Shown: positions 3,082 to 33,954, counted from the first letter of the stretch. The stretch: DNA of 64,000 bases from a candidate division WWE3 bacterium (GCA_013335095.1 JAAXWF010000002.1:269566-333565); one strand, 5' to 3'. Numbers and translations: made by a program. The notes: generated by a model not told the origin, from the sequence alone.

Positions 3082-3471
3082 TTATTCAACCAACTTGATC
3101 ACCGGATATGCGCCGGCACGGTCGAGGACGAATTTGTGGGAAACCTCGAGCCACGTATACATTAGGCCGCTTCCCCAGCAAAAGACCTGATTGTTTCGTA
3201 CCGGTACAACCTCCCAGCTGATATCCTCCAGCTGAAGAAAACCGGCGATATCGGTACTTGGCAGCCCTTGCAGTGTGAGGCTGTATGCATGCATCCCTGT
3301 GACGGATACGATTTGGGGCTGTGCATACAAGTAGAGCCGCTCGCGCATGCCCCCCTTAAAGGGGAACTCCACCATATACGATGTCTTGGCTAACTGAGAG
3401 AAATCGATATCTTCGGGTAGGCCTCCATATGGAGAGGGGACATCTCCACTACCAGGTAAGAGAATTCTCAC
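3082..3471 (-). CDS. Hypothetical protein (GC-rich ORF, GTG start)
   Basis: A 129-aa ORF with GGAGGTG immediately upstream of the GTG start. Its GC content is clearly above that of the flanking genes. No family was recognised. Confidence 0.45.
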   Translation of the reverse strand: MRILLPGSGDVPSPYGGLPEDIDFSQLAKTSYMVEFPFKGGMRERLYLYAQPQIVSVTGMHAYSLTLQGLPSTDIAGFLQLEDISWEVVPVRNNQVFCWGSGLMYTWLEVSHKFVLDRAGAYPVIKLVE

Positions 3472-3570
3472 CGCGCACCTCCAGGTTAAATCCTATTGCT
3501 ACAATCAGCATGGAAATTATACACCGTCTTTCCTAAATAGCTGTTTCAATGCTACGATAAAAATTAATCC

Positions 3571-5352
3571 ATGCAATTACTTCGTAATATTATTCGCACG
3601 CTGGGTATTCAATGGCAGATTAGCAAGTTAAAAACACTATTTATCTTTATGGTAGCAATCGGCGCCCCCGCGACTTCGATTGCAAGCGTTTATATATTAG
3701 GACGTTTCATAGATACAATTACCATGATCAGCGATAATCCAAGCGTAACTTCAAGGGCAACTATTCTATTTATATTTCTTTTAGTTGGAGGTTTCTTAAC
3801 TGAACTATTCAAGAAGTTGCGCTTATATGTGGAACGTATTATTTTCTATGACTGGCATCACGAAATGATCATGCGAGTCAACGAAAAAGTATCGATGCTC
3901 GACTTTCCGACGCTCGAGAATGGCACGTTTAACACACTGCTTAACAAGATAAAGATCGGATATGAGCACATTCCTGGCAATTATATGAATCCGCTATTTT
4001 CAATGACCAGCGAGGGGATTCGTCTGATTTCAGCTGTAATACTTATTTCAGTCGTACTGCCAATTACCGCCCCGATTATTGTCGTTTCGCTTATTCCTCA
4101 ATTCTTTGTTTCAAAAGAGGGCAGTAAATTGTACTGGGGTATTTGGGACTCTCGAGGTGAAGATGCTAAACGCTACTTTAGCACTCGCGATAATTTAACC
4201 AGTATAGGATCAATAAAAGAAGTAAAACTATTTGGGCTCAAGGATTACTTATTAAACAGAATAGATATCATAATTACGAGTTTCCTGGCTGAACAGAAGC
4301 GCATCTTATCTCGAGAGATGAGGCTGGGTATTGGTGCGCAGATTGTGGAGTTTGTTGCGATTGCTGGAATCCAAACATGGCTGCTGTTTAATGTACTAGC
4401 CAGTAAGATTGCAGTTGGATCGTTTATTTTTTATCTTCAAACGACTAATGAATGTATATCGGCTGGACGTGAGTTTTTTCGTAATTTATTAAAACTTCAT
4501 GAGTTTAATCTGTTTATGACTGATTTGTTTGCATTCCTTGATCTACAGCCAACAATTATCAGTAAAACTAAAGCACCAAAGGTATCGACAAAGCATGTAC
4601 CACTTATCGAGTTTAGAAACGTAAGCTTTGCATACCCCAATTCGGGTACAAATGTATTTAAGGATTTCTCGCTAACAATTAGCCCCGGTGAAGATATTGC
4701 GATTGTGGGGGAGAATGGTGCCGGTAAAACAACTTTCGTCAAATTGCTTGCGCGACTGTACGATGTGACCGAAGGGGAGATACTAATAAATGGCATGAAT
4801 ATCAAAGATATTGATCTGCCATCGTGGCATAAAAACTTAGGTATTCTTTTCCAAGATTTTAATCGGTATGCCGATTCGGTAAAAGAAAATATTAAGCTCG
4901 GAAATATCAATCAAAAAGTGATTATGAAAGAGATTCAACATGCAGCAAAGTCTGCTGGTGCAGATAGTTTTATTCAAAAGTTCCCGCATACATATAATCA
5001 GATGCTTGGGAGCCATTTCATTCATGGTATTGATGTGTCGGGTGGGCAATGGCAACGAATCGCGTTAGCCAGGGCATATTATCGGAAAGCAAATATATTA
5101 ATTCTTGATGAACCGACATCGGCGATTGATGCCAAAGGCGAGTACGAGATATTTGAAAAGATATCCAAAATGCAAAAAGATAAGACGACTATTATTATTT
5201 CACATCGATTTTCAACAGTACGGATGGCTGATAAAATTTATGTTGTCGATAAGGGCAAGATAATTGAACAAGGTGATCATAGGCAGCTCATGGCGATAAA
5301 AAACGGCACCTATCATTCTCTGTTTACCACCCAAGCCAAAGGGTATACATGA
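3571..5352 (+). CDS. ABC transporter, fused permease/ATPase (type I exporter, MsbA/multidrug-like)
   Basis: The N-terminal TM domain is followed by Walker A GENGAGKTT, the ABC signature VSGGQWQRIALARA and Walker B ILILDEPTSAID. The H-loop ISHR is present. Confidence 0.9.
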   Translation: MQLLRNIIRTLGIQWQISKLKTLFIFMVAIGAPATSIASVYILGRFIDTITMISDNPSVTSRATILFIFLLVGGFLTELFKKLRLYVERIIFYDWHHEMIMRVNEKVSMLDFPTLENGTFNTLLNKIKIGYEHIPGNYMNPLFSMTSEGIRLISAVILISVVLPITAPIIVVSLIPQFFVSKEGSKLYWGIWDSRGEDAKRYFSTRDNLTSIGSIKEVKLFGLKDYLLNRIDIIITSFLAEQKRILSREMRLGIGAQIVEFVAIAGIQTWLLFNVLASKIAVGSFIFYLQTTNECISAGREFFRNLLKLHEFNLFMTDLFAFLDLQPTIISKTKAPKVSTKHVPLIEFRNVSFAYPNSGTNVFKDFSLTISPGEDIAIVGENGAGKTTFVKLLARLYDVTEGEILINGMNIKDIDLPSWHKNLGILFQDFNRYADSVKENIKLGNINQKVIMKEIQHAAKSAGADSFIQKFPHTYNQMLGSHFIHGIDVSGGQWQRIALARAYYRKANILILDEPTSAIDAKGEYEIFEKISKMQKDKTTIIISHRFSTVRMADKIYVVDKGKIIEQGDHRQLMAIKNGTYHSLFTTQAKGYT

Positions 5353-5381
5353 TACAAACGCAGCACCTCTTTAATAAAACC

Positions 5382-5399
5382 CATAATATAGTATAATAA
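5382..5399 (+). promoter_or_regulatory. Putative promoter, conserved 17-nt module ATAATATAGTATAATAA (copy 1)
   Basis: An identical 17-mer recurs at 7635..7651, upstream of the third paralog. It contains TATAAT about 40 nt before the AAAGGAG RBS and the ATG. Confidence 0.4.
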
Positions 5400-5438
5400 C
5401 GCTGCCGGAATTCGCATAAAGTAAAGGAGTTTGTCCTT

Positions 5439-6212
5439 ATGGACGACACCACTCGGTCGGACGATCAGGGTTTTGATCGTGAAGGGTACATCGCAGAAGC
5501 TCGACAGGAGATCGAGCCTGCGATTGAAAAAATCCGCCAACTGACAATCAATTGGCAACAGTATTATCCAGGCGATGGCAACATGGTACTGATCATGGAT
5601 CGGGTACCTGGTATTGCTGAAGGATTTGGTTTGGACTTTATGAGCGCCCTTGCGATCTCGCCCATACCCCAAACCCCCGAGGAATCGGATTTCTTCACCC
5701 GCCTCGAAACGATGTTCACACCTGGGCAATATGTCCCGATCGTACTTATCCATAAAGGCAAGTACGTCGTCACATTCGTGGTACGGCCAAATCATCCAAC
5801 CGACAAGGTCGTGACGTGTGAGGGGTACAAAGTACCCGACTTCGATTGTCCGCCAGATACAGCAGAGATTGCTGATGACCTGGCGTTTATCAGGGAACAC
5901 TGGCTTGAGGTTATTAGAGCCTTGCCAGAATTTGCGGCTTCAGCTGGTGAGGGAATGATGACCCTCATCAAGTACCTGAAGACTGGTCAACGGGGCATCT
6001 ACTACACTACCACGGCAGCTGCGATGGAAGTGCTGACGACATACCCAACTGCGCGTCAGGTATTCCAAGAGCAGGTCACCCGGGTTGACCCAACTCGGTA
6101 CATCCCGCTAATGGTTGTTAGCGATATCCCCGGCGGACCGGTACTGTTCTACGGTCTCATTGTTCCCCAGGCTGGGGAAGCGCCTACAGTTGAACAAATC
6201 GACGCTGGCTAG
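5439..6212 (+). CDS. Hypothetical protein, paralog A of a triplicated GC-rich family (two repeated sub-domains)
   Basis: A 257-aa ORF with an AAAGGAG RBS. It shares YVPIVLI..FVVRP and YIPLMVV..PVLFYGL motifs with the ORFs at 6778 and 7686. It is acidic and has no TM segment or signal peptide. Confidence 0.75.
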   Translation: MDDTTRSDDQGFDREGYIAEARQEIEPAIEKIRQLTINWQQYYPGDGNMVLIMDRVPGIAEGFGLDFMSALAISPIPQTPEESDFFTRLETMFTPGQYVPIVLIHKGKYVVTFVVRPNHPTDKVVTCEGYKVPDFDCPPDTAEIADDLAFIREHWLEVIRALPEFAASAGEGMMTLIKYLKTGQRGIYYTTTAAAMEVLTTYPTARQVFQEQVTRVDPTRYIPLMVVSDIPGGPVLFYGLIVPQAGEAPTVEQIDAG

Positions 6213-6232
6213 TTTGTAGCTTCGACTTCAAA

Positions 6233-6266
6233 CGGCGGCAGGGAGAAATCTCTGCCGTTTTTTTTT
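6233..6266 (+). terminator. Rho-independent terminator
   Basis: The stem GGCAG(G)GAGA ... TCTCTGCC is followed by nine T residues. Confidence 0.7.
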
Positions 6267-6328
6267 GCAATACTATTCATAAACAAATTGGTATAATTTA
6301 TTTAGAACAAAAGGGGAGGTGATTACTC

Positions 6329-6634
6329 ATGAAAGGATTTATTGATTTCATTCGTGAACAAGGCGTGGTAGGACTCGCGGTTGGTTTTATCCTTGGTGGG
6401 GGAGTTGCTAAAATAGTCGATTCACTCGTTCAGGATATTATCAATCCGGTGCTCGGACTTATTTTAGGAGCTGCTGGAAGTCTGAATGAAGCGGTGCTAA
6501 CAATCGGCGAGGCACAAATCAGATGGGGTAGTTTTGTAAATACAGCCATCGACTTCACGATCATCGCATTTATCGTTTATTTTGGGGTGAAAGCGTTAAA
6601 GCTCGATAAATTAGATAAAACAGAGGCAGCATAA
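6329..6634 (+). CDS. mscL: Large-conductance mechanosensitive channel MscL
   Basis: FIDFIREQGVVGLAVGFILGGGVAKIVDSLVQDIINPVLG aligns with the E. coli MscL N-terminus and TM1. The TM2 motif NTAIDFTIIAFIVYF is present. A strong SD AGGGGAGGTGA precedes the start. Confidence 0.85.
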   Translation: MKGFIDFIREQGVVGLAVGFILGGGVAKIVDSLVQDIINPVLGLILGAAGSLNEAVLTIGEAQIRWGSFVNTAIDFTIIAFIVYFGVKALKLDKLDKTEAA

Positions 6635-6777
6635 TTACCACAACACTGCCCGTAAAACACACCAACACATAGTTTGATGTAGTAATTTATTGTATAGAAC
6701 TCTCATACCCATTGAACACAACATCCTTGCTATATAATTAGTCCGAACGAAGATATTGCATGTAGGAGAGCAGCATC

Positions 6778-7551
6778 ATGGACGATCAGGTATCGGATCG
6801 ACAGGAGCTAATAGCTCACACGTTGCGTTTCCTTTCCGAATCACTTACCGAGGTTGCAGCAGTAAGTCTTGCTCATATCGGACTAATCGGCTCACCCTAC
6901 CTACTTACGGTAAGTGGTCGAACCGATGGATCCACATGTCAATGTGAGATTCGGATGATAGGCGGTCGAGATCTGGCATTGTTTCAATCAGATCTCGAAG
7001 GTATTGATCTAATCCAACTATCGAAACGTCATATTCCGGGATGGTATATCCCAGTCATTGTCGAAGATGCAGGACGAGCGCTGGCCGCTGTTATAGTACG
7101 GCCGCATAACCAAGAGTTTCCGGTGGTACTAAGCAGCTCGGATAAACTCATCGACGGATACGAAGCCCCACTAGTCAGTACCACCCTCGAGGAGATGGTT
7201 ACTCCAGCAGATGAACTGTTCTTAATAACGCAGTTCGAAACGCTGGTTAGTCGATATCCGGCCTGTCTGGATCAATTCGGGTTAGGTATGTTTTGCCTCG
7301 CTCGAAGTAGTGCCACGGGGCGCACGGTGTTGGTTTTCTTCGCGCTGCAGACCATCATCGATGGATTAATCAGTGGAGGACATTACCACGCTCTAAAAGT
7401 TATCGGAACGCTCATACCCCAAACCGCTCACGGTATGTACTACCCAGTCATGGTAGTAACCGACGCACCTAACAGTCCGGTCGGTTTTGTCGGGTTAACA
7501 AAGGGCGTACAAGGAGTACAGGCAGCGCAGATCGCCTATAATTCGTTATAA
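6778..7551 (+). CDS. Hypothetical protein, paralog B of the triplicated family
   Basis: A 257-aa ORF with the same length class, two-domain layout and shared motifs: WYIPVIVED..AAVIVRP and YYPVMVVTDAPNSPVGFVGL. Confidence 0.7.
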   Translation: MDDQVSDRQELIAHTLRFLSESLTEVAAVSLAHIGLIGSPYLLTVSGRTDGSTCQCEIRMIGGRDLALFQSDLEGIDLIQLSKRHIPGWYIPVIVEDAGRALAAVIVRPHNQEFPVVLSSSDKLIDGYEAPLVSTTLEEMVTPADELFLITQFETLVSRYPACLDQFGLGMFCLARSSATGRTVLVFFALQTIIDGLISGGHYHALKVIGTLIPQTAHGMYYPVMVVTDAPNSPVGFVGLTKGVQGVQAAQIAYNSL

Positions 7552-7556
7552 AATTG

Positions 7557-7582
7557 GTTGGGAAGAGTGTATTCTTCCCAAC
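7557..7582 (+). terminator. Hairpin terminator (weak U-tract)
   Basis: A perfect 10-bp stem GTTGGGAAGA / TCTTCCCAAC with a 6-nt loop lies directly after the stop of paralog B. Confidence 0.45.
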
Positions 7583-7634
7583 ATAATCTATAGACACTCA
7601 ATGGTTGCGCAAATTCCATCATGGCAAAAAACCT

Positions 7635-7651
7635 ATAATATAGTATAATAA
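7635..7651 (+). promoter_or_regulatory. Putative promoter, conserved 17-nt module ATAATATAGTATAATAA (copy 2)
   Basis: Identical to 5383..5399. It is followed by an AAAGGAG RBS and the TTG start of paralog C. Confidence 0.4.
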
Positions 7652-7685
7652 GCACGCGTTTGAAGTATAGGCAAAGGAGCGTCCA

Positions 7686-8471
7686 TTGGACAGCACAACC
7701 ACGTCTAATAAGCCCTTTTCGCGGGACAGCTATCTGGCCCAGGTAGTCGAATTCATCCGCGGCAATCGGGTTTATGTGATTGACTCGAGCCTCGAATACG
7801 GCAGCATCACTTCAGTCAGGCCGCAAATCCTGATCATTATGGATGAATGCGGTGAGCTAGACCAGATCGGGCTCTACCAAACTGGTAGCATGGCCCTCGA
7901 TGGTTACGGCAAAACGCCCGAAGAAAAAGATTTCATCCGGGCGATGGCCGAGAAAACCAATCCAGGGGTGTATATCCCGATCGTGGTTTTCTTCGACCTT
8001 GAACTGGTGGCAATGCTGGTCTTCCGGCCCCTCGCGGCCGAAGATAATCAGCTTGTCGAGGTTATAGACTGGACCAATCCTCCGGTAGATGATCTATCAG
8101 CCTACCTGGCCGAAGTGGACGACGACCTAACGGTATTCCGCGATACATTTTGCGGCATTCGTCCGGTGATGGACAGATACCGAACCGGCTATGGTCCGGG
8201 GGTGTTTTCATATATGTGTGGTAGCGATGCCTCGATGCTCGCTTACCATCTAAAGGATCATCTCATCAGGATGCTCGCCCTACTGGCGGTAGAAAATCCC
8301 GAAGAGCAGGGATCAGCGATCACGAATGCGGCCAGTGATGGCACGTATGTCATCATGGTCGTCCCGATGCAGGCGCAAAGGCCGATCGTGTTTTATACGA
8401 TCAAAAGCACGCCCGAGGGTGCGGTGACGCAGCATCTGCCCATCCGGGCGATCCCGGTCATCAGCGCATAA
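7686..8471 (+). CDS. Hypothetical protein, paralog C of the triplicated family (TTG start)
   Basis: A 261-aa ORF with a TTG start and an AAAGGAG RBS. Its upstream region is paralogous to that of paralog A. Shared motifs are YIPIVVFFD..AMLVFRP and YVIMVVPMQAQRPIVFYTI. Confidence 0.7.
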   Translation: MDSTTTSNKPFSRDSYLAQVVEFIRGNRVYVIDSSLEYGSITSVRPQILIIMDECGELDQIGLYQTGSMALDGYGKTPEEKDFIRAMAEKTNPGVYIPIVVFFDLELVAMLVFRPLAAEDNQLVEVIDWTNPPVDDLSAYLAEVDDDLTVFRDTFCGIRPVMDRYRTGYGPGVFSYMCGSDASMLAYHLKDHLIRMLALLAVENPEEQGSAITNAASDGTYVIMVVPMQAQRPIVFYTIKSTPEGAVTQHLPIRAIPVISA

Positions 8472-8476
8472 TACCT

Positions 8477-8513
8477 ATGGCGTTAGAGGAAACACCTCTA
8501 GCGCCATTTTTTT
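8477..8513. terminator. Rho-independent terminator (bidirectional, between convergent genes)
   Basis: A 13-bp stem ATGGCGTTAGAGG / CCTCTAGCGCCAT with one G-U pair is followed by TTTTTTT. Confidence 0.75.
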
Positions 8514-8541
8514 AATTTTATAAATATCTCCAGAAAATCAA

Positions 8542-10254
8542 TCAAGAAAATAATGATGAATTAAGCGAAGTTACACCTTTTATTGTCTGCATACCTTTAA
8601 TTGGCAACTTAATATAAAACGTTGTACCCTTATTAACTTTGGATTCAAACCAAATCGATCCACCAGTATGATCAAGGATCGACTTTACGATATAGAGTCC
8701 AAGACCAGTACCATCCGCTTCAACATCACGAGCATTATCGGCACGAAATAGTTTGGTAAAAATTTTATTTTTTTGTTTTTCAGGAATTCCAATCCCTTGA
8801 TCAGCAATGGCAATAATGACATCTTGATCTTGGATAGAAACTGATATGTCTATCGTACTTTGATCAGGACTATACTTAATTGCATTGGTAATAATATTTT
8901 GTAAAATTATCGCCATAAGCTGTTGATCAAGCATAATATCGGGCAATGAATCAGGATATGATTCTTTAATACGAGCGTGATGAGATTTTATAAACGGATC
9001 AAGCAGCACAACTAAGTCATGCAATAACTGTCGAAGATTTAACTTGATCGGATCAACAGAAAATGTACCCATTTCAATTCGAGAAACATTCAGAAGAGCA
9101 CTCACTAAGTTAGTCATACGTTGATTCCCTTTGCATATCTCTAATAAAAATGTGCGTTGTTCGTCGTTTAATGAGCCGGCATTCTGATTTAAAAGTAACT
9201 CGGTATACCAATTTATGGTTGATAAAGGAGTCCGCAGCTGATGAGATGCTAGCGAAACAAATTCACTTTTTGCTTTATCAATCGCTATCTCCCTAGCGAC
9301 ATCACGAATAATGATTGCGACACCAATGATATCTTCCGACATATGTATAGGCGAAACCGTTGCCGCGACTGGAAAAACCTTACCATCTTTGCCGGTGTAA
9401 TAATAGGGATGATAAATGGGCGTACTACTCCCTTCTTTTTGTTTAAGCGCACGGGTTATCATTTCTGATTCAACAGAGCTGGACCGATTATGATCATTAA
9501 CAGGAGTAACACAATCTGGCCAAATTTGGCCCATTAGTTCATCATTTGAATAACCAGTAGCTTCGGTTACTACTTTATTAGCCATGATTACATGGCGTGA
9601 AGTATCAAGCACAACTAATCCATCACCGATATTATGCAAGATCGCCTCATCCTTTGCTTTCTCTTCGGCAAGCTTCTTTTTTTCCTCCAGTAAATTTTTC
9701 TCTAAACGAGTTCGTTCTTGAAGAGCAACGCTTAACATTTCTGAGTTAATCTCTAATTCAGCCCATTTTGCGAAATTCATTAATATTTCAATGTCCTCGT
9801 CGGTAGGAGTTCTTGGCTGTACGTCTTTAATACAAAAAACCCCAACACGGCTACCATCGGCGGCATAGAGTGGAACGCCCGCATAAAAACGAATGTTAGG
9901 AGCACTAATTACCATCGGGTTATCACGGAACCGCTCATCCTTGAGTGTATCGGGAATTATCATGACGCCTTCACTAAGTAATGCGTGACCACAAAAAGAG
10001 ATTGCGCGATCTTTCTCCTGAGAATCAACACCCTGGCATGATTTATACCATTCGCGACTAGTATCGATTATCGTAATTGTTGAGATCGGGGCATGAAATA
10101 CACTCGTAGCTGTTTTTGTTATTCGATCAAACCGTTCTTCGGGGGGAGTGTCCAAAATATTCAACGCATGAACAGATGCAATGCGCGTTGCTTCATTGGC
10201 AGGAATCGGGGCCTTTTGCATAGGGTATAAGCATAGTATGAATTTTTTACTCAA
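8542..10254 (-). CDS. Sensor histidine kinase, cytoplasmic, GAF + coiled-coil + PAS + HisKA + HATPase
   Basis: The H-box reads ASHQLRTPLSTINWYTELL. The N, G1 and G2 boxes are NAIKYSPD, DQGIGIP and GTGLGLYIVKSI. An N-terminal GAF-like region is followed by a long EEKKKLAEEKAK coiled coil. No TM segment or adjacent response regulator was found. Confidence 0.85.
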   Translation of the reverse strand: MSKKFILCLYPMQKAPIPANEATRIASVHALNILDTPPEERFDRITKTATSVFHAPISTITIIDTSREWYKSCQGVDSQEKDRAISFCGHALLSEGVMIIPDTLKDERFRDNPMVISAPNIRFYAGVPLYAADGSRVGVFCIKDVQPRTPTDEDIEILMNFAKWAELEINSEMLSVALQERTRLEKNLLEEKKKLAEEKAKDEAILHNIGDGLVVLDTSRHVIMANKVVTEATGYSNDELMGQIWPDCVTPVNDHNRSSSVESEMITRALKQKEGSSTPIYHPYYYTGKDGKVFPVAATVSPIHMSEDIIGVAIIIRDVAREIAIDKAKSEFVSLASHQLRTPLSTINWYTELLLNQNAGSLNDEQRTFLLEICKGNQRMTNLVSALLNVSRIEMGTFSVDPIKLNLRQLLHDLVVLLDPFIKSHHARIKESYPDSLPDIMLDQQLMAIILQNIITNAIKYSPDQSTIDISVSIQDQDVIIAIADQGIGIPEKQKNKIFTKLFRADNARDVEADGTGLGLYIVKSILDHTGGSIWFESKVNKGTTFYIKLPIKGMQTIKGVTSLNSSLFS

Positions 10255-10274
10255 ATGTAAAGATGCGCAAACCA

Positions 10275-10313
10275 GCCTATAGCTATTGCCTTTTTTATAT
10301 AACGTATTAAAAT
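10275..10313 (+). promoter_or_regulatory. Degenerate copy of the cccatagcRtttgact promoter module
   Basis: cctatagctattgcct-ttttttatata..tattaa parallels 22298..22340. It lies upstream of the small ORF at 10346. Confidence 0.25.
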
Positions 10314-10345
10314 ATCAGAATATCCTTATGTGAGGAGGTGTTATC

Positions 10346-10675
10346 GTGTCTCTACACCCGGAAACGCCCGAAGGTTCGGCGGTACTCGCTCTTCGAATAC
10401 GGTACGAATCTCGCCGAGGGACCTGGCGGGATCTGTCAAGACCGATCACCCTTGGGGAATTGGCCATTGTCCCAGTTTCATGGTTTCTCATGATTTTGGG
10501 CGGTGCTCAACTCTTAACGGTTTGGGGTGAATTAAGCTTTCTATTATTTCCATCGTACGTGGAATTATGGATTGCTTCATTAAGCCTGCTCATTGTTGTC
10601 GGAATTCCGGCAGCGACACTAGCGCATATCGTGGTAAGACTTTTTGCCCGATTCGGTGGAAAAGAACTCTTTTAG
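10346..10675 (+). CDS. Hypothetical small membrane protein (GTG start)
   Basis: A 109-aa ORF with an AGGAGGTG RBS and two or three hydrophobic helices. The alternative frame 10330..10530 was judged less likely. Confidence 0.4.
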   Translation: MSLHPETPEGSAVLALRIRYESRRGTWRDLSRPITLGELAIVPVSWFLMILGGAQLLTVWGELSFLLFPSYVELWIASLSLLIVVGIPAATLAHIVVRLFARFGGKELF

Positions 10676-10695
10676 ACAAACCAAGATACATAATA

Positions 10696-10730: not shown

Positions 10731-10789
10731 ACAATAATTCATCAATTGTTATTGGACGTAATTAAATATGAGTACTATTATATTTACAG

Positions 10790-25872: not shown

Positions 25873-25898
25873 ATGCGATCTTAGAAAACCGTATCCAT

Positions 25899-26756
25899 TT
25901 ACACCTTGCCAATGTTCACCGCTGGGGGAACACAGGCCGTCATAGTTTGCTCCTGGAGCACCACCGCAATGTTGTCGCGGAAGTACACCATCTGTACCAT
26001 CACCGCAACCGGCAAACACGTCTCATCACCTTTCAGTGATTTTGCCGGATCGGGGTAATGCTCTACGATCCCCGGTGTAGCCCAATTCCCGTAATCATTG
26101 GGATCCGTATCAGGCACAGGAACGAATTGGTCTTGGCGAACCTGATGCCAGACCCACCATCCGCTATTAGCTGGTGGGGTGGAAGGACTCCATTTAAACT
26201 CAAGCTGAACGTTCCCATCCTTATCCAGATTAGGTATCAAGGCAGGGGGGCTCATCTTAAGCTCGGCAAGACTCTTCACATCGACCCCGATATCAGCACC
26301 CGTTAAGGGTTTTAGCTGATCGATCGGCGTGAACGTCACTGGAACAGGATCGCTAAACGATCCTTCGGGCCGGCGCAGAACGGTCACCGACGCGGCAGTC
26401 GTATCATACCCGCCATCAAAGGCAAAGAACGCCTCGTTGGAACGAGATGCGGCGATACGCGTGGCCAAATCCTTGCCATCGCGCTGAAACGTCACATCGT
26501 ACCATTCTTGGTTTGGTGTGAGCGGACGCCCTTCCCATTTCACCATCAGGACCGGACGATTCTTTGCATCAAGACCGATCACCCGGGCTTCAGTGATTGT
26601 GATACCACCGATACCAGCCATATTAAGCAAGCGAGGCCCATAGATAACAGCAATGGTAGCGCCTGCGCCTAGCAAGAGCAGGATCAGACACGCGATCAGA
26701 ATCCAAGCGCCACGCGAGGTTTGATTCCGCGGTTGATCCAAGCCTGAAAGAGCCAT
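25899..26756 (-). CDS. Hypothetical membrane-anchored protein (GC-rich)
   Basis: A 285-aa ORF with an N-terminal TM helix and a Trp-rich C-terminal domain. It is co-oriented and probably co-transcribed with the M50 protease. Confidence 0.5.
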   Translation of the reverse strand: MALSGLDQPRNQTSRGAWILIACLILLLLGAGATIAVIYGPRLLNMAGIGGITITEARVIGLDAKNRPVLMVKWEGRPLTPNQEWYDVTFQRDGKDLATRIAASRSNEAFFAFDGGYDTTAASVTVLRRPEGSFSDPVPVTFTPIDQLKPLTGADIGVDVKSLAELKMSPPALIPNLDKDGNVQLEFKWSPSTPPANSGWWVWHQVRQDQFVPVPDTDPNDYGNWATPGIVEHYPDPAKSLKGDETCLPVAVMVQMVYFRDNIAVVLQEQTMTACVPPAVNIGKV

Positions 26757-26768
26757 AATCGGGCCTCC

Positions 26769-27485
26769 TTATGATTGTGCTGGGTCAGGAAGATTCCCGA
26801 CCTCCCTAATCGTAGCCGCCATCATACTAAGTCCATTGATGATCCAGATCGTGAGCCCAAGGCCATTCCCCAGGCCAATCAAAATACCTGCAGTAATAAT
26901 CCCAATCGTAATTGGAATTCTATCTGCAAGGCGTCGATCTTCGGTCCATCCCCAAATCACCGAGCGAAGCAGAGCGCCACCATCTGATGGGTGGCCGGGC
27001 ATGCAGTTGAATGCCCCGATCAGAATGTTCCCCTGTGCTGTATTGAAAAGTAGTACAGAGGGAATTATACCGATGACAGATCCGAACTTTAGCCACAGCG
27101 CAAAAAGCACCGTTCCGATCACAATGCTTGCAAGGGGACCAATAAGGTACACCCACAGCTCATGGAGATGCCTTCGCTGCCGATACGCAAACTCGATATT
27201 ACTTCCGATAATATAAATCGTTACCCGAGTGATCGGAAGCTTAATCAGCCGTGCGACCATAATATGCGACAACTCATGGATCCACAGACTCATCCCGAAC
27301 AATGCGATTGATACCGCACTAATCAGGTGGTACTGCCAGAGGGCAAAACCAGGCAGCTGATACGGATACTGAACCTTATACAGGATCACATAATCCATAA
27401 TCAACGCTAACCAGGTCGTCCAATGCAGCTTAACCGCCACGGTCTGTTTACGATGGGCGACTTCGCCTCTTCCAATTTGGGTCAC
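26769..27485 (-). CDS. Site-2 protease family (M50) membrane zinc metalloprotease
   Basis: The HExxH motif IHELSHIM sits in a TM helix of a polytopic membrane fold. Confidence 0.65.
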   Translation of the reverse strand: MTQIGRGEVAHRKQTVAVKLHWTTWLALIMDYVILYKVQYPYQLPGFALWQYHLISAVSIALFGMSLWIHELSHIMVARLIKLPITRVTIYIIGSNIEFAYRQRRHLHELWVYLIGPLASIVIGTVLFALWLKFGSVIGIIPSVLLFNTAQGNILIGAFNCMPGHPSDGGALLRSVIWGWTEDRRLADRIPITIGIITAGILIGLGNGLGLTIWIINGLSMMAATIREVGNLPDPAQS

Positions 27486-27557
27486 AAACTGTGCCTCCTT
27501 CTATGACACGATTAATGCGACAACGATATTATACACGACAAACTATAGGACACAACA

Positions 27558-29123
27558 TTACCGTACATGCCATACCATTCCTCCAAATCCGATATATACC
27601 AGCTGTAACTTTTCGTCTTGTGATAGTTGAGATATTAATGAATCGTAACCTGGAATGGGTTGTCCCTCTCTAGTTACCGGTACAAATATAAAATCGTAGG
27701 CTAAATCATCATCGTTGAGTTTATTTTGTAAACATCCCCACGCCAACTCACATTGCTTCAATGATCGAAATAATTCATGGGCGGTAGAAAATCGGTTATC
27801 AGATAACCATTCACTGCCTTGAACGGTTGTTATACTTTGCCGATTTGTTATGGCTGGAAACCACTCAGCCACATAATCATTCGACCAATACTGCTGTTCA
27901 CCTGGGCGAGGAATAAGCAAAAAACGAGCGTTATTAGGAGTAGATTCACTAATCCAAATCATAGCATCAGCTTCATTAATTGAGAGCGCGGAAAGTAGGG
28001 GATCTACCCGATTAATGAATAAAAATATCCCTCCCCAATAAATTAGCATTAAAATCACCAAACTAATCAAAATAAATCGCCCGTGGATAATGCGCTTAAA
28101 TGGAGTGAAATCATTCATCTGTGAGCGCATTGCTGGATAAATCACGTAAGAAATACCATATGCGCTCAATAATGCCATTAGGGGCGTACCGAAAGTAGCA
28201 GCACTGCGCGGTATCAGCACAATTATTAATCCTAACCATAGTGGTACATAAAATGAACCTCGCGCGATCTGCAATAAAATTCCGATTAACGCCAGTACGC
28301 TAATTAACGGAACAAATGGCTCGTGGGTAAAATCCCATAAAACGAAGTGAGTATAGAGTCCAAAACCCCAGCCACCGGTTTGAGAAGCATTCAAAAATGG
28401 TGCGACTCCGTGATACACAAGCACCGTGGCCCACCAGGGAGATGCGATTATTAACCCAATAAGAAGGCATATTAAAATATCTAATAGGCCCCTAAATAAT
28501 CCACGAAAATAAATTGACGAAACAGCAATACTTATAATCGCAAAGATAGTCATTTCTGGATGAGACAACATAGTCAATCCGAGTAAGACCCCGGCGAAAA
28601 ATAGCCGATATCGCAACGATGAAATAATGAGAATAATTGACCCGAGCGCCCAAACCATCCCGAGACTTCTTGTTAAACCTCCGCCCATAATTAACCATTC
28701 GAAACTCCGAGGCAGACTAATAAACAGCAATACTGCTAATACGCTAATCTTTTTATTTTTAGTTATGATCCAGCTGAACAGGTACATTAAGGGGATTGTT
28801 AAACTTGAGATAAAAACGGGCAACCATTTTATTAGTGAAAAAACAGGTATGTTGAATAAATTCGATACTAAAGCCGCAAGATAAAACGATAATGGGGGAT
28901 AGGCGAATGGTATGAAGACGTGATTGTATGAGGTAAATCGAGGGAGTACAAAATGATTTGTGATCAGGTCATTGATCATGGAATACCATAGCCCGCCATC
29001 ATTTAAAGGAAATTCATGAAATAATACTGGAGTCGCCCTAAATAGGAATCCGACTACCGTCAGTACGATGATCAATTTAACAGTGCGAAACGAGATTTTT
29101 ACCGAATGATCGTGTTCATTCAT
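27558..29123 (-). CDS. Polytopic membrane glycosyltransferase-like protein (GT-C / ArnT-PMT-like), putative
   Basis: A 521-aa ORF with about 12 TM helices. It lies near the GtrB and GtrA genes. The family call is inferred from topology and context only. Confidence 0.35.
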   Translation of the reverse strand: MNEHDHSVKISFRTVKLIIVLTVVGFLFRATPVLFHEFPLNDGGLWYSMINDLITNHFVLPRFTSYNHVFIPFAYPPLSFYLAALVSNLFNIPVFSLIKWLPVFISSLTIPLMYLFSWIITKNKKISVLAVLLFISLPRSFEWLIMGGGLTRSLGMVWALGSIILIISSLRYRLFFAGVLLGLTMLSHPEMTIFAIISIAVSSIYFRGLFRGLLDILICLLIGLIIASPWWATVLVYHGVAPFLNASQTGGWGFGLYTHFVLWDFTHEPFVPLISVLALIGILLQIARGSFYVPLWLGLIIVLIPRSAATFGTPLMALLSAYGISYVIYPAMRSQMNDFTPFKRIIHGRFILISLVILMLIYWGGIFLFINRVDPLLSALSINEADAMIWISESTPNNARFLLIPRPGEQQYWSNDYVAEWFPAITNRQSITTVQGSEWLSDNRFSTAHELFRSLKQCELAWGCLQNKLNDDDLAYDFIFVPVTREGQPIPGYDSLISQLSQDEKLQLVYIGFGGMVWHVR

Positions 29124-29248
29124 ACTTTTGCAAATGTACCGGCATTGTATCAGAATGAACGATCGCTAAAATGGTCCTTAAGGGATCAATATTTGTTGCC
29201 ACGAACAGCAAATTAATATAGTATGGTAGATAATACTTATCTTGCCCC

Positions 29249-31003
29249 ATGGACGTAAAACAAGTTAGTCGTTACTTCAAACACTTTGAATTTTCTATTT
29301 GGTCTTTGATCGTATTTCTTGGGATTCTGATAAATTTTTCTGGAATAGAATCGCTGATCCAACATGAATTCGCGATGAACATATTGCTTGGAGTAATTTC
29401 GATCTATACCCTCGTTCATTTTCGACTGATTCCCGCAGAAAAGCATACCAGTACCGTTATCGTTGCATCAACATTAATCTTTACCACGTTAACACTGTGC
29501 GTCGTGCATTTTAGCGGTTCCTTTGACAGTATATTTTTTCCGGTAATTTATATCCCGATACTTTTTTCGATGATGATGGCCGGATGGAGAGTCGTTCTTA
29601 TCGTCGGATTCTATACGTTGGCGTTTCTGTCGTTTGAATTTCTGATCTATTTTTTGCCCCTTCACGGGTGGGCGACAGAATCAATCCGAATATTACTAGA
29701 TCGAGTAATTGGTTTAGTGATCGTTACCTATATCTCTTATGTCAACACACAGGAAGTCTTAACGCGGGCCAAAGAGAATCTAGCATTACAAGAAGAAAAG
29801 GAAAAGATACATGCAATACAACAGCGAGAAGAAACGATCTTCCAATCAATCCAAGACATGGTGATTGCGCTTGATAAAACAGGAAAAGTCATACTCTCAA
29901 ATCGGAGCTTTGAAAATACAATGGGCTTGCCTCGAATAGATATATTAAATAAGCATTATCGTGATCTATTTAACATTTTTGAGATTGATCATTTAGGTAA
30001 TTTGATTGCCGAGATCGACTTGCTTCTAACAAAAGAGTTTTCGATTTTCTTTAGTGATGCCGAAAAAAATAATGACAACCGAGACCTCAAATTAGTCAGC
30101 AAACACAATCAAAAGGAAGTATTCATTGAACTAACAAATTCTCCATTATCAGCTGAAACCGATCAAACCGTCGAAGGCGCGGTTGTGGTAATGCGAGATG
30201 TAACCGATCAAAAACAACTCGATAAGATGAAGCTTGATTTCGTTTCAATGGCGGCGCATGAGCTGCGAACCCCAATAACAGCAGTACGCGGTTATCTTAG
30301 CGCACTTAAAGAAGAAGCATGGAACGTACTTAATGAAGAGCAAAAACGCTTTGTTGATCGGGCCGATATTGCATCAATACAGCTTGCGACTTTAATGGAG
30401 AACCTTTTATCAGTTTCACGTATCGAGCGCGGTTCGTTTAATTTAGATCGACGCGAAACTGATTGGAAAAAATTAGTCGAGCAACGCGTTGAAGAGTTTC
30501 AAACCCGAGCCGAAGCTCATGGACTCGCATTAATTTATCAGGCCCCACCAGTGGATATTCCGAAAGTGTTTGTCGACCCACTTCGTATTATCGAGGTGCT
30601 AAATAATCTTATTTCAAACGCAATAAATTACACCAACGAAGGACGGGTTGAAGTACGAGTAGAATATGATCCAAAAGAAGAGGTCGTTATAACCAACATC
30701 CAAGATACAGGCCAAGGAGTCCCACAAGATGCCCTTCCTCATATGTTTGAAAAGTTCTTCCGAGTATCGGGTGTGCTCGAACAGGGATCCAAAGGTACAG
30801 GACTGGGACTTTATATTTCAAAGCAAATTGCCGAGTTACATGGTGGTAAAATATGGGTGCAGAGTAAAGTTGATATAGGTTCAACGTTTAGTTTTAGCGT
30901 ACCGACGATAAATAATAAAAATATTCAGGAAGCGCTAAAAACACAACCACAAGCAGTTCGGCAAGCGTATCATGGACAACGGCCAACCACAAACCCAACC
31001 TAA
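29249..31003 (+). CDS. Membrane sensor histidine kinase (6 TM + PAS + HisKA + HATPase)
   Basis: The H-box reads AAHELRTPITAVRGYLSAL. NAINYT, DTGQGVP and GTGLGLYISKQI mark the ATPase domain. Confidence 0.9.
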   Translation: MDVKQVSRYFKHFEFSIWSLIVFLGILINFSGIESLIQHEFAMNILLGVISIYTLVHFRLIPAEKHTSTVIVASTLIFTTLTLCVVHFSGSFDSIFFPVIYIPILFSMMMAGWRVVLIVGFYTLAFLSFEFLIYFLPLHGWATESIRILLDRVIGLVIVTYISYVNTQEVLTRAKENLALQEEKEKIHAIQQREETIFQSIQDMVIALDKTGKVILSNRSFENTMGLPRIDILNKHYRDLFNIFEIDHLGNLIAEIDLLLTKEFSIFFSDAEKNNDNRDLKLVSKHNQKEVFIELTNSPLSAETDQTVEGAVVVMRDVTDQKQLDKMKLDFVSMAAHELRTPITAVRGYLSALKEEAWNVLNEEQKRFVDRADIASIQLATLMENLLSVSRIERGSFNLDRRETDWKKLVEQRVEEFQTRAEAHGLALIYQAPPVDIPKVFVDPLRIIEVLNNLISNAINYTNEGRVEVRVEYDPKEEVVITNIQDTGQGVPQDALPHMFEKFFRVSGVLEQGSKGTGLGLYISKQIAELHGGKIWVQSKVDIGSTFSFSVPTINNKNIQEALKTQPQAVRQAYHGQRPTTNPT

Positions 31004-31397
31004 ACAAATCTTGTTTATCGAAGATGACCTACTTCTGCGAGATATTTATTCACGTAGTTTAACGAAAGCGGGCTTTAACGTTGTAATGGCTGAAGATGGT
31101 GTTATTGGACTTGAAAAAGCCGATGATCAACCGTTTGATCTAATATTACTTGATGTGATGATGCCCAAGATGCATGGAATTGACGTGTTAAAACATTTAA
31201 AAATGAATGTAAAGACAAAAGACATTCCAGTCCTGATGATGACCAATCTAGGACAAGAAAGCGTTCTCGAAGAAGCCTTTGGGCTTGGAGCTATTGGATT
31301 TCTGATTAAAGCAAAACTACTTCCGCCAGAGCTATCTCAAAATCTAAAAACATACTTTGAGACTGGCCAAATGCCAATAAATATCAAATCTATATAA
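30972..31397 (+). CDS. Single-domain response regulator (CheY-like receiver)
   Basis: ILFIEDD, DLILLDVMMP and the Thr/Lys motifs MMTNLG..KAK are present. It overlaps the kinase gene by 32 nt. Confidence 0.85.
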   Translation: MDNGQPQTQPKQILFIEDDLLLRDIYSRSLTKAGFNVVMAEDGVIGLEKADDQPFDLILLDVMMPKMHGIDVLKHLKMNVKTKDIPVLMMTNLGQESVLEEAFGLGAIGFLIKAKLLPPELSQNLKTYFETGQMPINIKSI

Positions 31398-31583
31398 GAT
31401 CTTCACATTCGTTGACATTCGTTTTATACTAATAACCACAATTATATTTGTCTGTTGAGAGCGTAGTAATGTCACGATTTTACAGAGAGGGGAGCAGAAG
31501 TTGAGAATCCCTAAATCACATTACCAAGACCACTCGGCATAAAAAAGACAACGTGCCATCACGAACGATGTAAAATTAAGATG

Positions 31584-31653
31584 GTCGCTAAAGCGGCAAT
31601 CAGGATGGAACCTCCCATAACTGGGATCCTGAAAGCGTTAGGCGACTTTTTTT
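31584..31653 (+). promoter_or_regulatory. Leader terminator/attenuator in front of thrS (T-box-like candidate)
   Basis: An imperfect long hairpin, GTCGC..TCAGGAT / ATCCTGA..GCGAC, ends in TTTTTTT 1 to 7 nt before the thrS start. Its 5' arm contains AATCAGGATGGAACCTCC, resembling the T-box consensus AATTAGGGTGGTACCGCG. Confidence 0.35.
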
Positions 31654-31654
31654 A

Positions 31655-33421
31655 TTGAATATGAAAAATAACGAATACCTACTACATCTCCGCCATACCA
31701 GCGCACATCTTTTGGCTGCAGCTGTTTTAGAACTATGGCCAGAGACCAAGCAAACCATCGGGCCAGCCATAGATACGGGGTTTTATTATGATTTTGAATT
31801 TGCAAAACCGATCACCGAGGAAGACCTACCTAAAATCGAAGCGAAAATGGCTGAACTTTTGAACGGTTGGTTTACAATCACACATCGAGAAGTGAGTCCT
31901 GAGGAAGCCAAACAATTATTCTCAAATAACCAATATAAGCACGAACTCATTGATGAATTTGCAAGTGAAGGTCAAACGCTGACCGTATATACCAGTGGTT
32001 CATATACTGACCTTTGTCGGGGCGGCCATGTCGAACACCCGGCCAAAGAAATCGGTGGATTTAAGCTTTTATCAATAGCGGGTGCATATTGGCGAGGTGA
32101 CGAAAAAAATAAGATGTTAACCCGAATTTATGGTACTGCATTCCCAACCAAAAACGAACTCGAAAAGTACTTAGCCGAATTAGAAGAAGCTAAAAAGCGG
32201 GATCACCGCAAGATCGGTAAAGAACTTGATTTATTTGCGTTCTCGGATCTTGTCGGTGCTGGTTTACCGCTATTTACTCCCAACGGAACAATTATCCGTA
32301 TGGAGCTCCAAAATGCGCTTTTTGAAATAAGTCGTAAATATTCGGTACTTCCGGTAACAATACCTCACTTAGCCAAGATTAAATTGTATGAGACATCGGG
32401 ACATGCCCAAAAGTTTGCTGGGGAATTATTTAGGGTAATTAGTCATTATGATGAAGAATTTGTCATGAAGCCGGTCAATTGTCCCCATCATACTCAAATT
32501 TATGCATCTCAGCCTCGTAGTTATCGAGATCTGCCGCTGCGATATATGGAATCAACCATGCAGTATCGCGATGAAAAACCAGGTGAAATAGGTGGATTAA
32601 CCCGCGTACGCTCAATAACTTGTGATGATGGGCATACATTTTGCACAGTCGACCAAATCAAAGAAGAGGCTCAAAACATCTGCCGGATTATCGAGGAATT
32701 TTATACCGGACTAGGGCTTTTTGGTAATCATTGGGTATCACTATCTGTTAGGGATCCTCAAAAACCAGACGCATATATCGGAGAACCTGCGGATTGGGAA
32801 AGAGCGGAGATGATGCTTCAACTAATATCCGATCAATTAGGACTAAATGCCATTCGACAAGAAGGGGAGGCCGCTATCTATGGACCTAAATTAGATTACA
32901 TGTTTAAAGATTCTCTCGGTAAAGAGCGCCAGCTCGCGACGGTCCAAATAGACTTTGCCATGCCAAAACGATTCGGATTAACATATATTGACCAACAAGG
33001 CAGCGAACAAACACCTGTCATGCTGCACCGTGCGATACTAGGTTCGTATGAACGATTTTTGGCGATCCTCATTGAACATTTTGCGGGAGCATTTCCATTG
33101 TGGCTTCACCCGACACAGGTTGCATTAATACCGATTAGTGAAAATCAACTCGAATATGCTCGAGCAATTGAGCAAAAAATTCGAGAGCTAATGCCAACAG
33201 TACGATTATCAATTGATACATCCAACGAAACACTACAAAAAAAGATTCGAAATGCACAAATGCTAAAGACTCCGTATATGTTAGTTATTGGCGGGAAAGA
33301 GCAACAGAATAACACCGTCAATGTCCGCTTACGAACTGGTGAATCACTTGGGGAATTAACTCCAGAGGAATTTGCTAAACGAATTGTTGAAAAGACTAAC
33401 CAGAGATCCCTTGATTTATAA
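31655..33421 (+). CDS. thrS: Threonyl-tRNA synthetase, reduced form lacking the N-terminal domains
   Basis: HRDLPLRYMESTMQYRDE, GLTRVRSITCDDGHTF and RAILGSYERF are class II motifs specific to ThrRS. The alternative start is the ATG at 31661. Confidence 0.9.
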   Translation: MNMKNNEYLLHLRHTSAHLLAAAVLELWPETKQTIGPAIDTGFYYDFEFAKPITEEDLPKIEAKMAELLNGWFTITHREVSPEEAKQLFSNNQYKHELIDEFASEGQTLTVYTSGSYTDLCRGGHVEHPAKEIGGFKLLSIAGAYWRGDEKNKMLTRIYGTAFPTKNELEKYLAELEEAKKRDHRKIGKELDLFAFSDLVGAGLPLFTPNGTIIRMELQNALFEISRKYSVLPVTIPHLAKIKLYETSGHAQKFAGELFRVISHYDEEFVMKPVNCPHHTQIYASQPRSYRDLPLRYMESTMQYRDEKPGEIGGLTRVRSITCDDGHTFCTVDQIKEEAQNICRIIEEFYTGLGLFGNHWVSLSVRDPQKPDAYIGEPADWERAEMMLQLISDQLGLNAIRQEGEAAIYGPKLDYMFKDSLGKERQLATVQIDFAMPKRFGLTYIDQQGSEQTPVMLHRAILGSYERFLAILIEHFAGAFPLWLHPTQVALIPISENQLEYARAIEQKIRELMPTVRLSIDTSNETLQKKIRNAQMLKTPYMLVIGGKEQQNNTVNVRLRTGESLGELTPEEFAKRIVEKTNQRSLDL

Positions 33422-33516
33422 CAGTTTAGAATATTTAATTCCAATTGTTTTTTTGCCTTCTCTTTCCTATAATCGACATCACGGTTAATACGCCCTACCA
33501 GAAAAGGAGTGATCCA

Positions 33517-33954
33517 ATGATGGATCCAAATGCCGTAGGAACCCCAGCCGTCCATTCAATACGAGTCTGGGTAGTTGCCCCGGACGACCGCAGAGATGTG
33601 CTGGAAATTTTCCAGCATAGTGAAGGGCAACAGTTTCAGGTCGATATCGTAATTATCGATATGAATAAACCCCATGGGAAACTCGCTGGACTACCCGATG
33701 AAAACACATGTTTCATCGTCTGCCGAAATGCTCCAGTTGTGGAACAATTGGACGATTTCACCCCCGACTTGCTGAAAGTAGTCCCCGGAGGTATAGGCGG
33801 CATCGAACTGCCAACGTACGTCTTCACGGGAAGCCTCCTTCAGTTTCTTCTTAGCCTTGAAGGAAAAGAGGTATACCCGATCCGTACAGATATTGAGTTT
33901 GGACTCGATATCCATCGGCTTAAATTGGGAGAGACGTGCAAAATAATTGAGTAA
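33517..33954 (+). CDS. Hypothetical protein (GC-rich) inserted between thrS and infC
   Basis: An AAAGGAG RBS precedes ATGATG at 33517. The ORF track extends it to 33445. No family was recognised. A hairpin AAAAGGGAGGGG / CCTCTCCCTTTT follows its stop at 33983-34014. Confidence 0.45.
   Translation: MMDPNAVGTPAVHSIRVWVVAPDDRRDVLEIFQHSEGQQFQVDIVIIDMNKPHGKLAGLPDENTCFIVCRNAPVVEQLDDFTPDLLKVVPGGIGGIELPTYVFTGSLLQFLLSLEGKEVYPIRTDIEFGLDIHRLKLGETCKIIE

Follow-up and report, generated by a model that had tools for sequence, protein, structure and literature searches.

Morons, first described in HK97/HK022 (reviewed by Cumby, Davidson and Maxwell, 2012; PMC3594210), are single-gene, independently transcribed units of phage and prophage genomes that carry their own promoter and terminator, are mostly of unknown function, differ in GC content from the flanking genes and lie wedged between genes that are adjacent in related genomes. 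The PeSL modules of T4-type phages are repeated intergenic modules of a plastic region. Each extends from the stop codon of the preceding gene to the Shine-Dalgarno sequence and start codon of an ORFan gene and contains a strong sigma-70-like promoter and a stem-loop; genes are shuffled, and mini-circles released, through recombination between modules (Arbiol et al., 2010; PMC2839356). Here, we describe units of similar anatomy in a 64-kb stretch of cellular DNA (hereafter, the window) that is part of a 358,632-bp contig from a metagenome-assembled genome of a candidate division WWE3 bacterium (locus tags HGA91_04xxx; sample SRR11449211), a member of the Candidate Phyla Radiation (CPR). Ten stand-alone units of 0.4–1.7 kb hold eleven GC-rich open reading frames (ORFs), which are probably horizontally acquired, moron-like expression cassettes.

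Most of the moron features listed above are found in these cassettes, promoters and terminators being predicted, and location between otherwise adjacent genes is seen at the thrS–infC junction, the one site among ten with syntenic relatives. Unlike morons, they are carried by a CPR housekeeping chromosome and have no phage genes in their vicinity (the island ORFs gave no PHROG matches and no match to phage records), they are dense, with ten units in 31 kb, and several have a common promoter box. Their anatomy appears to resemble that of PeSL modules even more closely. A PeSL-type module, consisting of a box with −35 and −10 elements, is present at 10276, 12635, 13173 and 22298, and a second type at 5376 and 7628, with the hairpin of the preceding cassette directly upstream of the box, e.g., at 13144–13167 before 13173. 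The cassette of ORF 12720 is flanked by two identical 16-nt boxes (12635 and 13173) located 538 bp apart, matching the PeSL mini-circle geometry of two identical boxes around one ORFan. The differences lie in the cellular setting, in the hairpin, which is at the 3′ end of the cassette and not inside the promoter, and in the short length of the repeat (16–28 nt).

Horizontal gene transfer and genomic islands have been documented in Patescibacteria, the donors being mostly other Patescibacteria and often not recovered (PMC12455944). The islands of that report are, like the cassettes, compositionally atypical accessory DNA in streamlined CPR genomes; they were obtained with island-prediction and best-match tools, and the report, so far as we are aware, gives no account of gene-sized cassettes bearing a promoter box, a Shine-Dalgarno sequence and a terminator in a host largely lacking these. 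Integron cassettes are also gene-sized, mostly orphan, compositionally diverse and organized in arrays, but they are normally promoter-less, end with attC and lie beside intI, three features absent here: our cassettes end with ordinary hairpin and T-run terminators that have no common sequence, and no attC-like site or consistent target duplication was detected at them. The classical genomic island (more than 10 kb, with an integrase, often a tRNA and direct repeats) is not matched either, since the segments measure 0.4–1.7 kb and no integrase or tyrosine recombinase domain was detected with Pfam in the 40 proteins scanned.

A composition class with its own expression signals

The first-pass annotation of the window, made by inspection, proposed that gene-sized GC-rich islands are scattered in a low-GC backbone. 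Whereas the GC content of the whole window is 0.412, the ten ORFs listed in that annotation have a GC content of 0.47–0.55 and a GC content at third codon positions (GC3) of 0.457–0.685, which validates all of them; the list was nevertheless incomplete, as it missed ORF 10346–10675 (GC 0.494, GC3 0.445). The resulting set of eleven ORFs, located between 3 and 34 kb (GC 0.47–0.55 against about 0.40 in flanking genes; GC3 0.445–0.685), does not overlap in GC3 with the 49 backbone ORFs (mean 0.339, sd 0.036, range 0.22–0.419; z = 2.9–9.6; Mann–Whitney p = 1.4e-7). The weakest cases are ORFs 33517–33954 (GC 0.47) and 6778–7551 (GC3 0.457). The backbone set includes thrS, infC, rplT, pheST, gyrB, type IV pilus genes, ABC and MFS transporters, two histidine kinases and mscL, and the islands have as neighbours thrS, infC, mscL, ABC and MFS transporters, histidine kinases and glycosyltransferases. 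A two-state hidden Markov model (HMM) run on raw GC, blind to ORFs, returned six high-GC segments (3046–3485, 5441–6257, 6765–8505, 12695–13838, 22365–23248 and 25848–27498) with a GC content of 0.51–0.54 and edges at most about 50 bp from ORF ends; it returned none within 27.5–64 kb, i.e., in the last 36 kb. The confinement of all eleven ORFs to the first 34 kb of the window has a probability of about 0.001 by chance. Overlapping antisense ORFs, which had been taken as a sign of the islands, are indeed seen over them.

The GC-rich ORFs also differ from the backbone in their expression signals. A strong Shine-Dalgarno sequence, defined as at least 5/6 matches to AGGAGG no more than 21 nt from the start, precedes 11/11 GC-rich ORFs versus 3/47 backbone genes (p = 1.6e-9). 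Intrinsic terminators, called as hairpins with a free energy (ΔG) of −10 kcal/mol or below followed by a T-rich tail, were predicted behind 7/11 GC-rich ORFs versus 2/48 backbone genes (p = 3e-5), and promoter-like sites were predicted from consensus sequences upstream of all ten units. The earlier suggestion that these ORFs tend to have strong Shine-Dalgarno sequences and their own promoter or terminator therefore stands. The 32 low-GC loci retrieved with threonyl-tRNA synthetase (ThrRS), presumed to be CPR, likewise have few strong Shine-Dalgarno sequences (7% of 408 ORFs); weak Shine-Dalgarno usage is general in related lineages.

Two promoter boxes were identified. The type B box corresponds to the 16-mer CCCATAGCRTTTGACT, found by an unbiased repeat search at 12635, 13173 and 22298, with the variant CCTATAGCTATTGCCT at 10276; it is followed 16–17 nt later by a TAnnAT −10 element, the CCCATAG motif lying at a fixed 25–26 nt from this element. 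A 16-mer in triplicate was observed in 0/100 dinucleotide shuffles. The type A box is a 24-mer, AAAACCYATAATATAGTATAATAA, located upstream of the first and third of three paralogous genes (ORFs 5439 and 7686) and shared by them at 23/24 nt. The composite pattern CCYATAG-N25/26-TAnnRT has four sites in the window, each upstream of a GC-rich ORF, and two in a short contig from another metagenome (L002, see below), whereas 1.08 Mb of other loci contain three, none of them promoter-like (without gene start behind). The looser heptamer CCYATAR is present within 200 nt upstream of 8/11 GC-rich ORFs versus 3/49 backbone ORFs (p = 9e-6), a result to which we give less weight because these very sites served to define the heptamer, which in part coincides with −10 hexamers. 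The box-bearing repeats at 12630 and 22293 extend over the stop codon of the preceding backbone gene. The presence of a conserved box that is under purifying selection and shared only among GC-rich genes shows their integration into a common regulation. One AT-rich gene, encoding a DUF4153 membrane protein (17741–19270), is preceded by TTCCTATAGTATAATAA (19270–19297, minus strand), which resembles the type A box; this is the only backbone gene with such a sequence upstream.

It is very improbable that these islands are an artefact, either a chimera of two organisms or, for the short GC-rich ORFs, chance stop-free frames or structured RNAs. Four Logan contigs, produced by a second assembler from the same reads, cover 1822–6269, 6274–25574, 25553–32316 and 32289–38663 at 100% identity to the window and recover identically all of the about twenty island/backbone junctions, the sole contig break near an island edge being a poly-T run (6269/6274). 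Chimeric assembly is very unlikely on these grounds, and the box-containing repeats that overlap stop codons of backbone genes also speak against it, although both assemblies were built from an identical read set. As for coding status, the six ORFs of at least 238 codons are longer than in shuffles (p ≤ 0.03), whereas the length of the five shortest segments is within the shuffle range (p = 0.07–0.27), including 12720–13109, which is overlapped by two long antisense ORFs. The coding status of the shortest ORFs rests on their start context, on terminators for some of them and, for 10346–10675, on a homologue detectable at the protein level. The Shine-Dalgarno sequence is correctly spaced at every GC-rich ORF and a terminator follows most of them, their starts agree with those of an independent gene caller, and two families are conserved at the protein level only. 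We also considered rRNA or other non-coding RNA as the source of the GC-rich segments, and rejected it since Rfam identified a single tRNA (tRNA-Val) in the window and nothing except tRNAs in the loci of 15 relatives.

Small clusters of GC-rich ORFs of unknown function also occur on other thrS-anchored contigs presumed to be CPR (L065, 13.6–16.4 kb; L045, 5.7–7.0 and 11.8–12.4 kb; L017, 15.6–16.4 kb; L056, 12.6–15.5 kb). Several of their products appear by eye to have signal peptides or membrane-spanning segments; the clusters lack the CCCATAGYAT box and correspond neither to rRNA nor to another Rfam family.

Origin of the cassettes

An indication of insertion comes from the thrS–infC junction, which we compared with 80 metagenomic loci (L005–L084) encoding a ThrRS with 45–58% identity. 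In 16/16 relatives with infC downstream, thrS and infC are uninterrupted, with a gap of −92 to 272 bp that leaves no room for a gene, versus about 670 bp here. The extra DNA corresponds to a promoter (33445–33473), ORF 33517–33954 and a terminator (33980–34001). The infC start called at 33969 (33969–34592) is probably too far upstream, as IF3 homology begins at residue 31–47 in all relatives; the terminator hairpin falls inside this supposed N-terminal extension. The cassettes occupy gaps between genes within a stretch of 31 kb that is poorly conserved. For the other nine sites, none of the 80 loci is syntenic, and a contig scan of GTDB representatives with the ABC transporter as synteny anchor returned only one unrelated locus, no representative being sufficiently close for a match.

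Composition points to a source outside this genome. The pooled GC contents of the islands at the first, second and third codon positions (GC1/GC2/GC3) are 0.585/0.418/0.548. Regressions on 47 thrS-anchored loci, mostly presumed CPR, translate these values into a source GC of 0.50/0.56/0.50, and the Muto–Osawa/Lawrence–Ochman equations into 0.515/0.56/0.515. The three codon positions agree on the GC content of the source (about 50–56%), as expected of genes equilibrated elsewhere and little ameliorated. A codon-usage comparison, of the kind suggested in the first-pass annotation, also separates the two sets: the relative synonymous codon usage of the islands shows no correlation with that of the host backbone (r = 0.02), versus r = 0.50 with L002 and about 0.5 with mid- and high-GC loci. 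Among the three paralogues, 11–22 identical codons were observed at conserved residues for 15–21 expected, a chance rate indicating that their synonymous sites are saturated. Since their GC3 is 0.46–0.65, versus about 0.34 expected had this turnover occurred in the present genome, the paralogues would have diverged in a richer-GC background and arrived already diverged, barring some selection on GC3.

Homologues of two island families were found in another metagenome. A profile search over 1.84 billion representative proteins with the 257-aa family formed by the paralogues retrieved only these three proteins and a fourth one, P0004 (E = 1.4e-22), whose gene lies on short Logan contigs, two in number, assembled from other runs (SRR21121628 and SRR21121620). 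The locus L002 (1767 bp, GC 0.495) carries three genes on the same strand, encoding an SRPBCC/polyketide cyclase-like fragment, P0004 and a 111-aa protein with two hydrophobic segments by eye, which is 28% identical, without gaps, to the product of ORF 10346–10675 (E = 4e-10). All three intergenic regions of L002 contain the box, as AACCCCATAACATATTTATTGTATAAT, TCCCATAGTATTGTCT-N17-TACAAT and AACCCATAGCAT...TAAAAT, and behind it a strong Shine-Dalgarno sequence. On L002, two of the island families seen in the window thus adjoin each other, at about 50% GC throughout and with the same promoters; this contig represents either the donor pool or a further recipient.

The first-pass annotation had left two origins open, cargo from a higher-GC donor or a lineage-specific gene class. 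Our data favour import, through the GC content of the three codon positions, codon usage, the Shine-Dalgarno and terminator contrasts, the thrS–infC junction and the saturated paralogues. Neither of the two observations named in that annotation as refuting its proposal was made: GC3 lies outside the range of the window backbone, and no close relative carrying these genes was found. The lineage-specific class is kept alive by the lack of a donor taxon, the orphan status of the genes and the shared box, and we consider it unlikely in the form of a native regulon. The GC-rich ORFs would then be fast-evolving genes of the WWE3 lineage and of the L002 organism controlled by a dedicated CCCATAG-box factor, with GC-rich coding sequences, Shine-Dalgarno sequences and terminators selected, e.g., for high insulated expression or mRNA stability. 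Such a regulon would account for promoter boxes that occur at these genes only and are better conserved than the proteins, for the occurrence of the 257-aa family in just two sources among the 1.84 billion representatives, for a dinucleotide signature weakly different from that of the backbone and for the tandem arrangement of the paralogues. It fits poorly with synonymous sites that are saturated yet far off the host equilibrium, and we know of no selection that yields a GC3 increase of 0.2; ribosomal protein and tRNA synthetase genes of the window have a GC3 of about 0.30–0.37. GC1 and GC2 moreover move together with GC3 toward the values of a genome with a GC content of about 50%, GC3-outlier ORFs represent 18% of ORFs here versus 3.4% in low-GC related loci, and the uninterrupted thrS–infC junction of the relatives also argues against a native origin.

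If the genes were imported, they could be remnants of a single larger element of about 50% GC (a degraded plasmid, or an integrative or prophage-like element) scattered by rearrangement and insertion of host genes. The clustering of all eleven ORFs in the first 34 kb and the promoter boxes common to several cassettes are in line with this scenario, as is the observation that the two families adjacent on L002 are only 1.9 kb apart in the window, with a histidine kinase gene of host composition between them. We nevertheless find it quite improbable: we detected neither PHROG matches nor genes for an integrase, replication, conjugation or virions, the pieces match gene size exactly and are separated by AT-rich housekeeping genes, the thrS–infC cassette resembles a clean single-gene insertion, and GC3 is heterogeneous across cassettes.

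Several observations weigh against acquisition as moron-like cassettes. No donor taxon was identified, no homologues were found in any well-sampled higher-GC lineage, and the phage, plasmid, PHROG, PADLOC and IMG/VR resources gave no matches apart from the M50 family. The GC-normalized dinucleotide distance (delta*) between islands and backbone is 56 versus a null of 32 ± 11, in a comparison that is underpowered on 6.8 kb and in which island halves differ from each other by 60. The heterogeneity of GC3 across cassettes (0.445–0.685) makes a single event from a single donor unlikely, and genes of host composition are interposed between related cassettes (mscL between paralogues 1 and 2, the histidine kinase gene between paralogue 3 and ORF 10346–10675), which requires extra rearrangements or several independent insertions at neighbouring sites. 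As no relative exceeds 58% ThrRS identity, just one empty site was compared. Direct repeats flanking the cassettes are inconsistent, and no association with an integrase, a transposase or a tRNA was seen. Finally, the type A box is conserved at 23/24 nt upstream of proteins with 24% amino acid identity; being far more conserved than the proteins, it is under selection, and this conservation shows present-day selection in this genome, which is equally expected of a native regulon.

Two kinds of candidates were examined and rejected. Flanking direct repeats of 11 nt (3025/3558), 10 nt (12629/13801) and 11 nt (25782/27576) exceed chance, but are inconsistent in length and position as transposition scars; the only tRNA gene (1774–1850) abuts no island. 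A phage, plasmid or defence origin was also discarded, as PHROGs, PADLOC, INPHARED tblastn and three protein and two motif scans of IMG/VR revealed nothing beyond chance, the IMG/VR motif matches being all single copies and PLSDB matching the M50 region only.

Despite these reservations, we favour import of individual cassettes. The source would be a gene pool equilibrated at about 50–55% GC that uses Shine-Dalgarno-led translation and intrinsic termination, whereas most genes of the recipient use neither. Each cassette would comprise a sigma-70-type promoter, a strong Shine-Dalgarno sequence, a GC-rich orphan ORF and, in most cases, a GC-rich hairpin terminator, several of them with the conserved box, and would be transcribed independently of its neighbours, moron-like but in a cellular chromosome. 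We infer both the direction of the transfer and its recency. Entry may have involved uptake of short DNA and illegitimate or short-homology recombination, possibly at the promoter boxes as in PeSL. The encoded proteins are presumably made and useful; some would be cytoplasmic, others located in the membrane or secreted, with a site-2 protease among them. The window also contains a type IV pilus cluster of backbone composition (45054–59422; PilM, PilC/T2SSF, PilT-like and PilB-like ATPases). Type IV pili mediate DNA uptake in many bacteria; no competence genes were identified in the window.

A more ambitious and rather unlikely possibility is that the cassettes are recombinase-free gene-shuffling units of CPR chromosomes, which would make them the equivalent, in cells, of PeSL in T4-type phages. 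The box (CCCATAG at about −45, or AACCCATAAYATA...GTATAAT) would then double as a transcription factor site and a short-homology site, and ORFan cassettes would be excised as mini-circles, swapped between Patescibacteria by natural transformation and re-inserted. The twin boxes around ORF 12720 have the geometry that box-mediated recombination would need. If the shared box does mediate recombination, single genes could be moved by minimal means, no enzyme of a mobile element being required.

Gene acquisition is poorly understood in CPR bacteria, whose genomes are tiny and which rely on other cells. The main new result is that genes read here as imported are told apart by a whole expression grammar (box, Shine-Dalgarno sequence and hairpin terminator) that the genes of the recipient largely lack; if imported, the cassettes are the chromosomal, CPR form of moron- or PeSL-like units. 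Their significance rests mainly on how cleanly expression signals separate imported from native genes and on the promoter box shared with a second organism. From expression grammar and composition together, recent imports into such genomes can be counted in a simple and testable manner, and the cassettes may help to trace the donor pool, possibly including a host or partner organism.

The ten cassettes and their products

Cassettes 1 and 9 are on the minus strand and the others on the plus strand. Cassette 1 (3045–3554) contains ORF 3082–3471 (129 aa; GC 0.521, GC3 0.585; HMM segment 3046–3485), which encodes an orphan protein and is preceded by an extended −10 element, TGTATAAT (3516–3523), and a TGGAGG Shine-Dalgarno sequence; its hairpin terminator is at 3045–3078 (ΔG −26).

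Cassettes 2, 3 and 4 carry the tandem paralogues, distant proteins with 20–25% identity that form a four-member family with P0004. In cassette 2 (5376–6259), the promoter box AAAACCCATAATATAGTATAATAA (5376–5399) precedes ORF 5439–6212 (257 aa, paralogue 1), followed by a terminator at 6234–6259. Cassette 3 (6707–7582) has a promoter-like sequence, ACCCATTGAACA...TATAAT (6707–6738), ORF 6778–7551 (257 aa, paralogue 2), whose GC3 of 0.457 is the most host-like, and a hairpin at 7556–7582. In cassette 4 (7628–8507), the promoter box (7628–7651) matches that of cassette 2 at 5376 over 23/24 nt and is followed by ORF 7686–8471 (261 aa, paralogue 3) and a terminator with a 13-bp stem (8477–8507).

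The AlphaFold2 model of this 257-aa family is poor (pLDDT 60) and has no match in the PDB. A domain of about 120 aa, duplicated internally in tandem, may be at the origin of the family, as weakly suggested by the hhalign alignment of its N- and C-terminal halves (E = 3e-4, probability 39%). Each putative half would consist of a long helix, strands, a helix and a ‘YIPxxVV’ strand. The profiles of the other island proteins are unrelated to either half.

Cassette 5 (10276–10675) is composed of the promoter CCTATAGCTATTGCCT-N16-TAAAAT (10276–10313) and ORF 10346–10675 (GC 0.494), which encodes a 109-aa protein with two hydrophobic, probably membrane-spanning, segments by eye.

Cassettes 6 and 7 are neighbours. 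The first one (12630–13167) has the promoter box CCCATAGCATTTGACT-N16-TACAAT (12635–12672), ORF 12720–13109 (129 aa, GC3 0.685) and a hairpin at 13144–13167; the 28-nt extended repeat (12630–12657) overlaps the TAA stop codon of the upstream dockerin gene. This upstream gene (10790–12634) encodes a secreted-looking protein of 614 aa with a C-terminal type I dockerin (PF00404, E = 3e-7), unusual equipment for a CPR bacterium. Cassette 7 (13173–13835) has a 16-nt box CCCATAGCATTTGACT identical to that of cassette 6 in its promoter (13173–13211), ORF 13359–13784 (141 aa) and a terminator at 13812–13835. A leader of 150 nt (13212–13358), with a small hairpin and a T-run inside, separates this promoter from the ORF; it has no match in Rfam and could be an attenuator or a small unannotated feature.

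Cassette 8 (22293–23308) contains the promoter box CCCATAGCGTTTGACT-N17-TATAGT (22298–22336), which overlaps the TAG stop codon of an MFS transporter gene, ORF 22383–23258 and a terminator at 23283–23308. The 291-aa product is lipoprotein-like, with a lipoprotein signal and a Pro/Thr-rich linker.

Cassette 9 (25848–27549) is a two-gene unit, with CCTATAGTTTGTCGTGTATAAT at 27528–27549, the genes 26769–27485 (first) and 25899–26756 (second) and a terminator at 25848–25872. The first gene encodes a short site-2 protease of the M50 family (238 aa), which matches PF02163 with 45.8 bits for a cut-off of 27.2, harbours both motifs of the family (HExxH, as HELSH at residue 70, and NxxPxxxxDG, within NCMPGHPSDGG at residue 160) and shares about 30% identity with annotated members of the site-2 protease family. 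The second one encodes a 285-aa protein that looks membrane-anchored, with an N-terminal hydrophobic segment by eye.

Cassette 10 (33445–34001), between thrS and infC, has the promoter TTGTTT-N17-TATAAT (33445–33473) and ORF 33517–33954 (145 aa; GC 0.467, GC3 0.48), followed by the terminator at 33980–34001.

Searches of the island ORFs with Pfam, NCBIfam, PHROGs and PADLOC revealed nothing beyond the M50 protease (26769–27485) and the lipoprotein signal (22383–23258); the M50 gene is the only one with a Pfam or NCBIfam family, as had been noticed from motifs at first inspection. PDB sequence searches gave nothing significant. Each of the seven ORFs looked up is a singleton cluster at 90% identity among 15 billion proteins, and the large-database homologue search covered the 257-aa family and the M50 protein.

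Some repeats link different cassettes. A 16-nt exact direct repeat, TCAAGACCGATCACCC, is present at 10436–10451 and 26569–26584, inside two different GC-rich ORFs, and a 14-nt inverted repeat, CGCTGCCGGAATTC (5400–5413/10602–10615), joins the leader of cassette 2 to ORF 10346–10675. Island-to-island pairs are over-represented among repeats of at least 14 nt.

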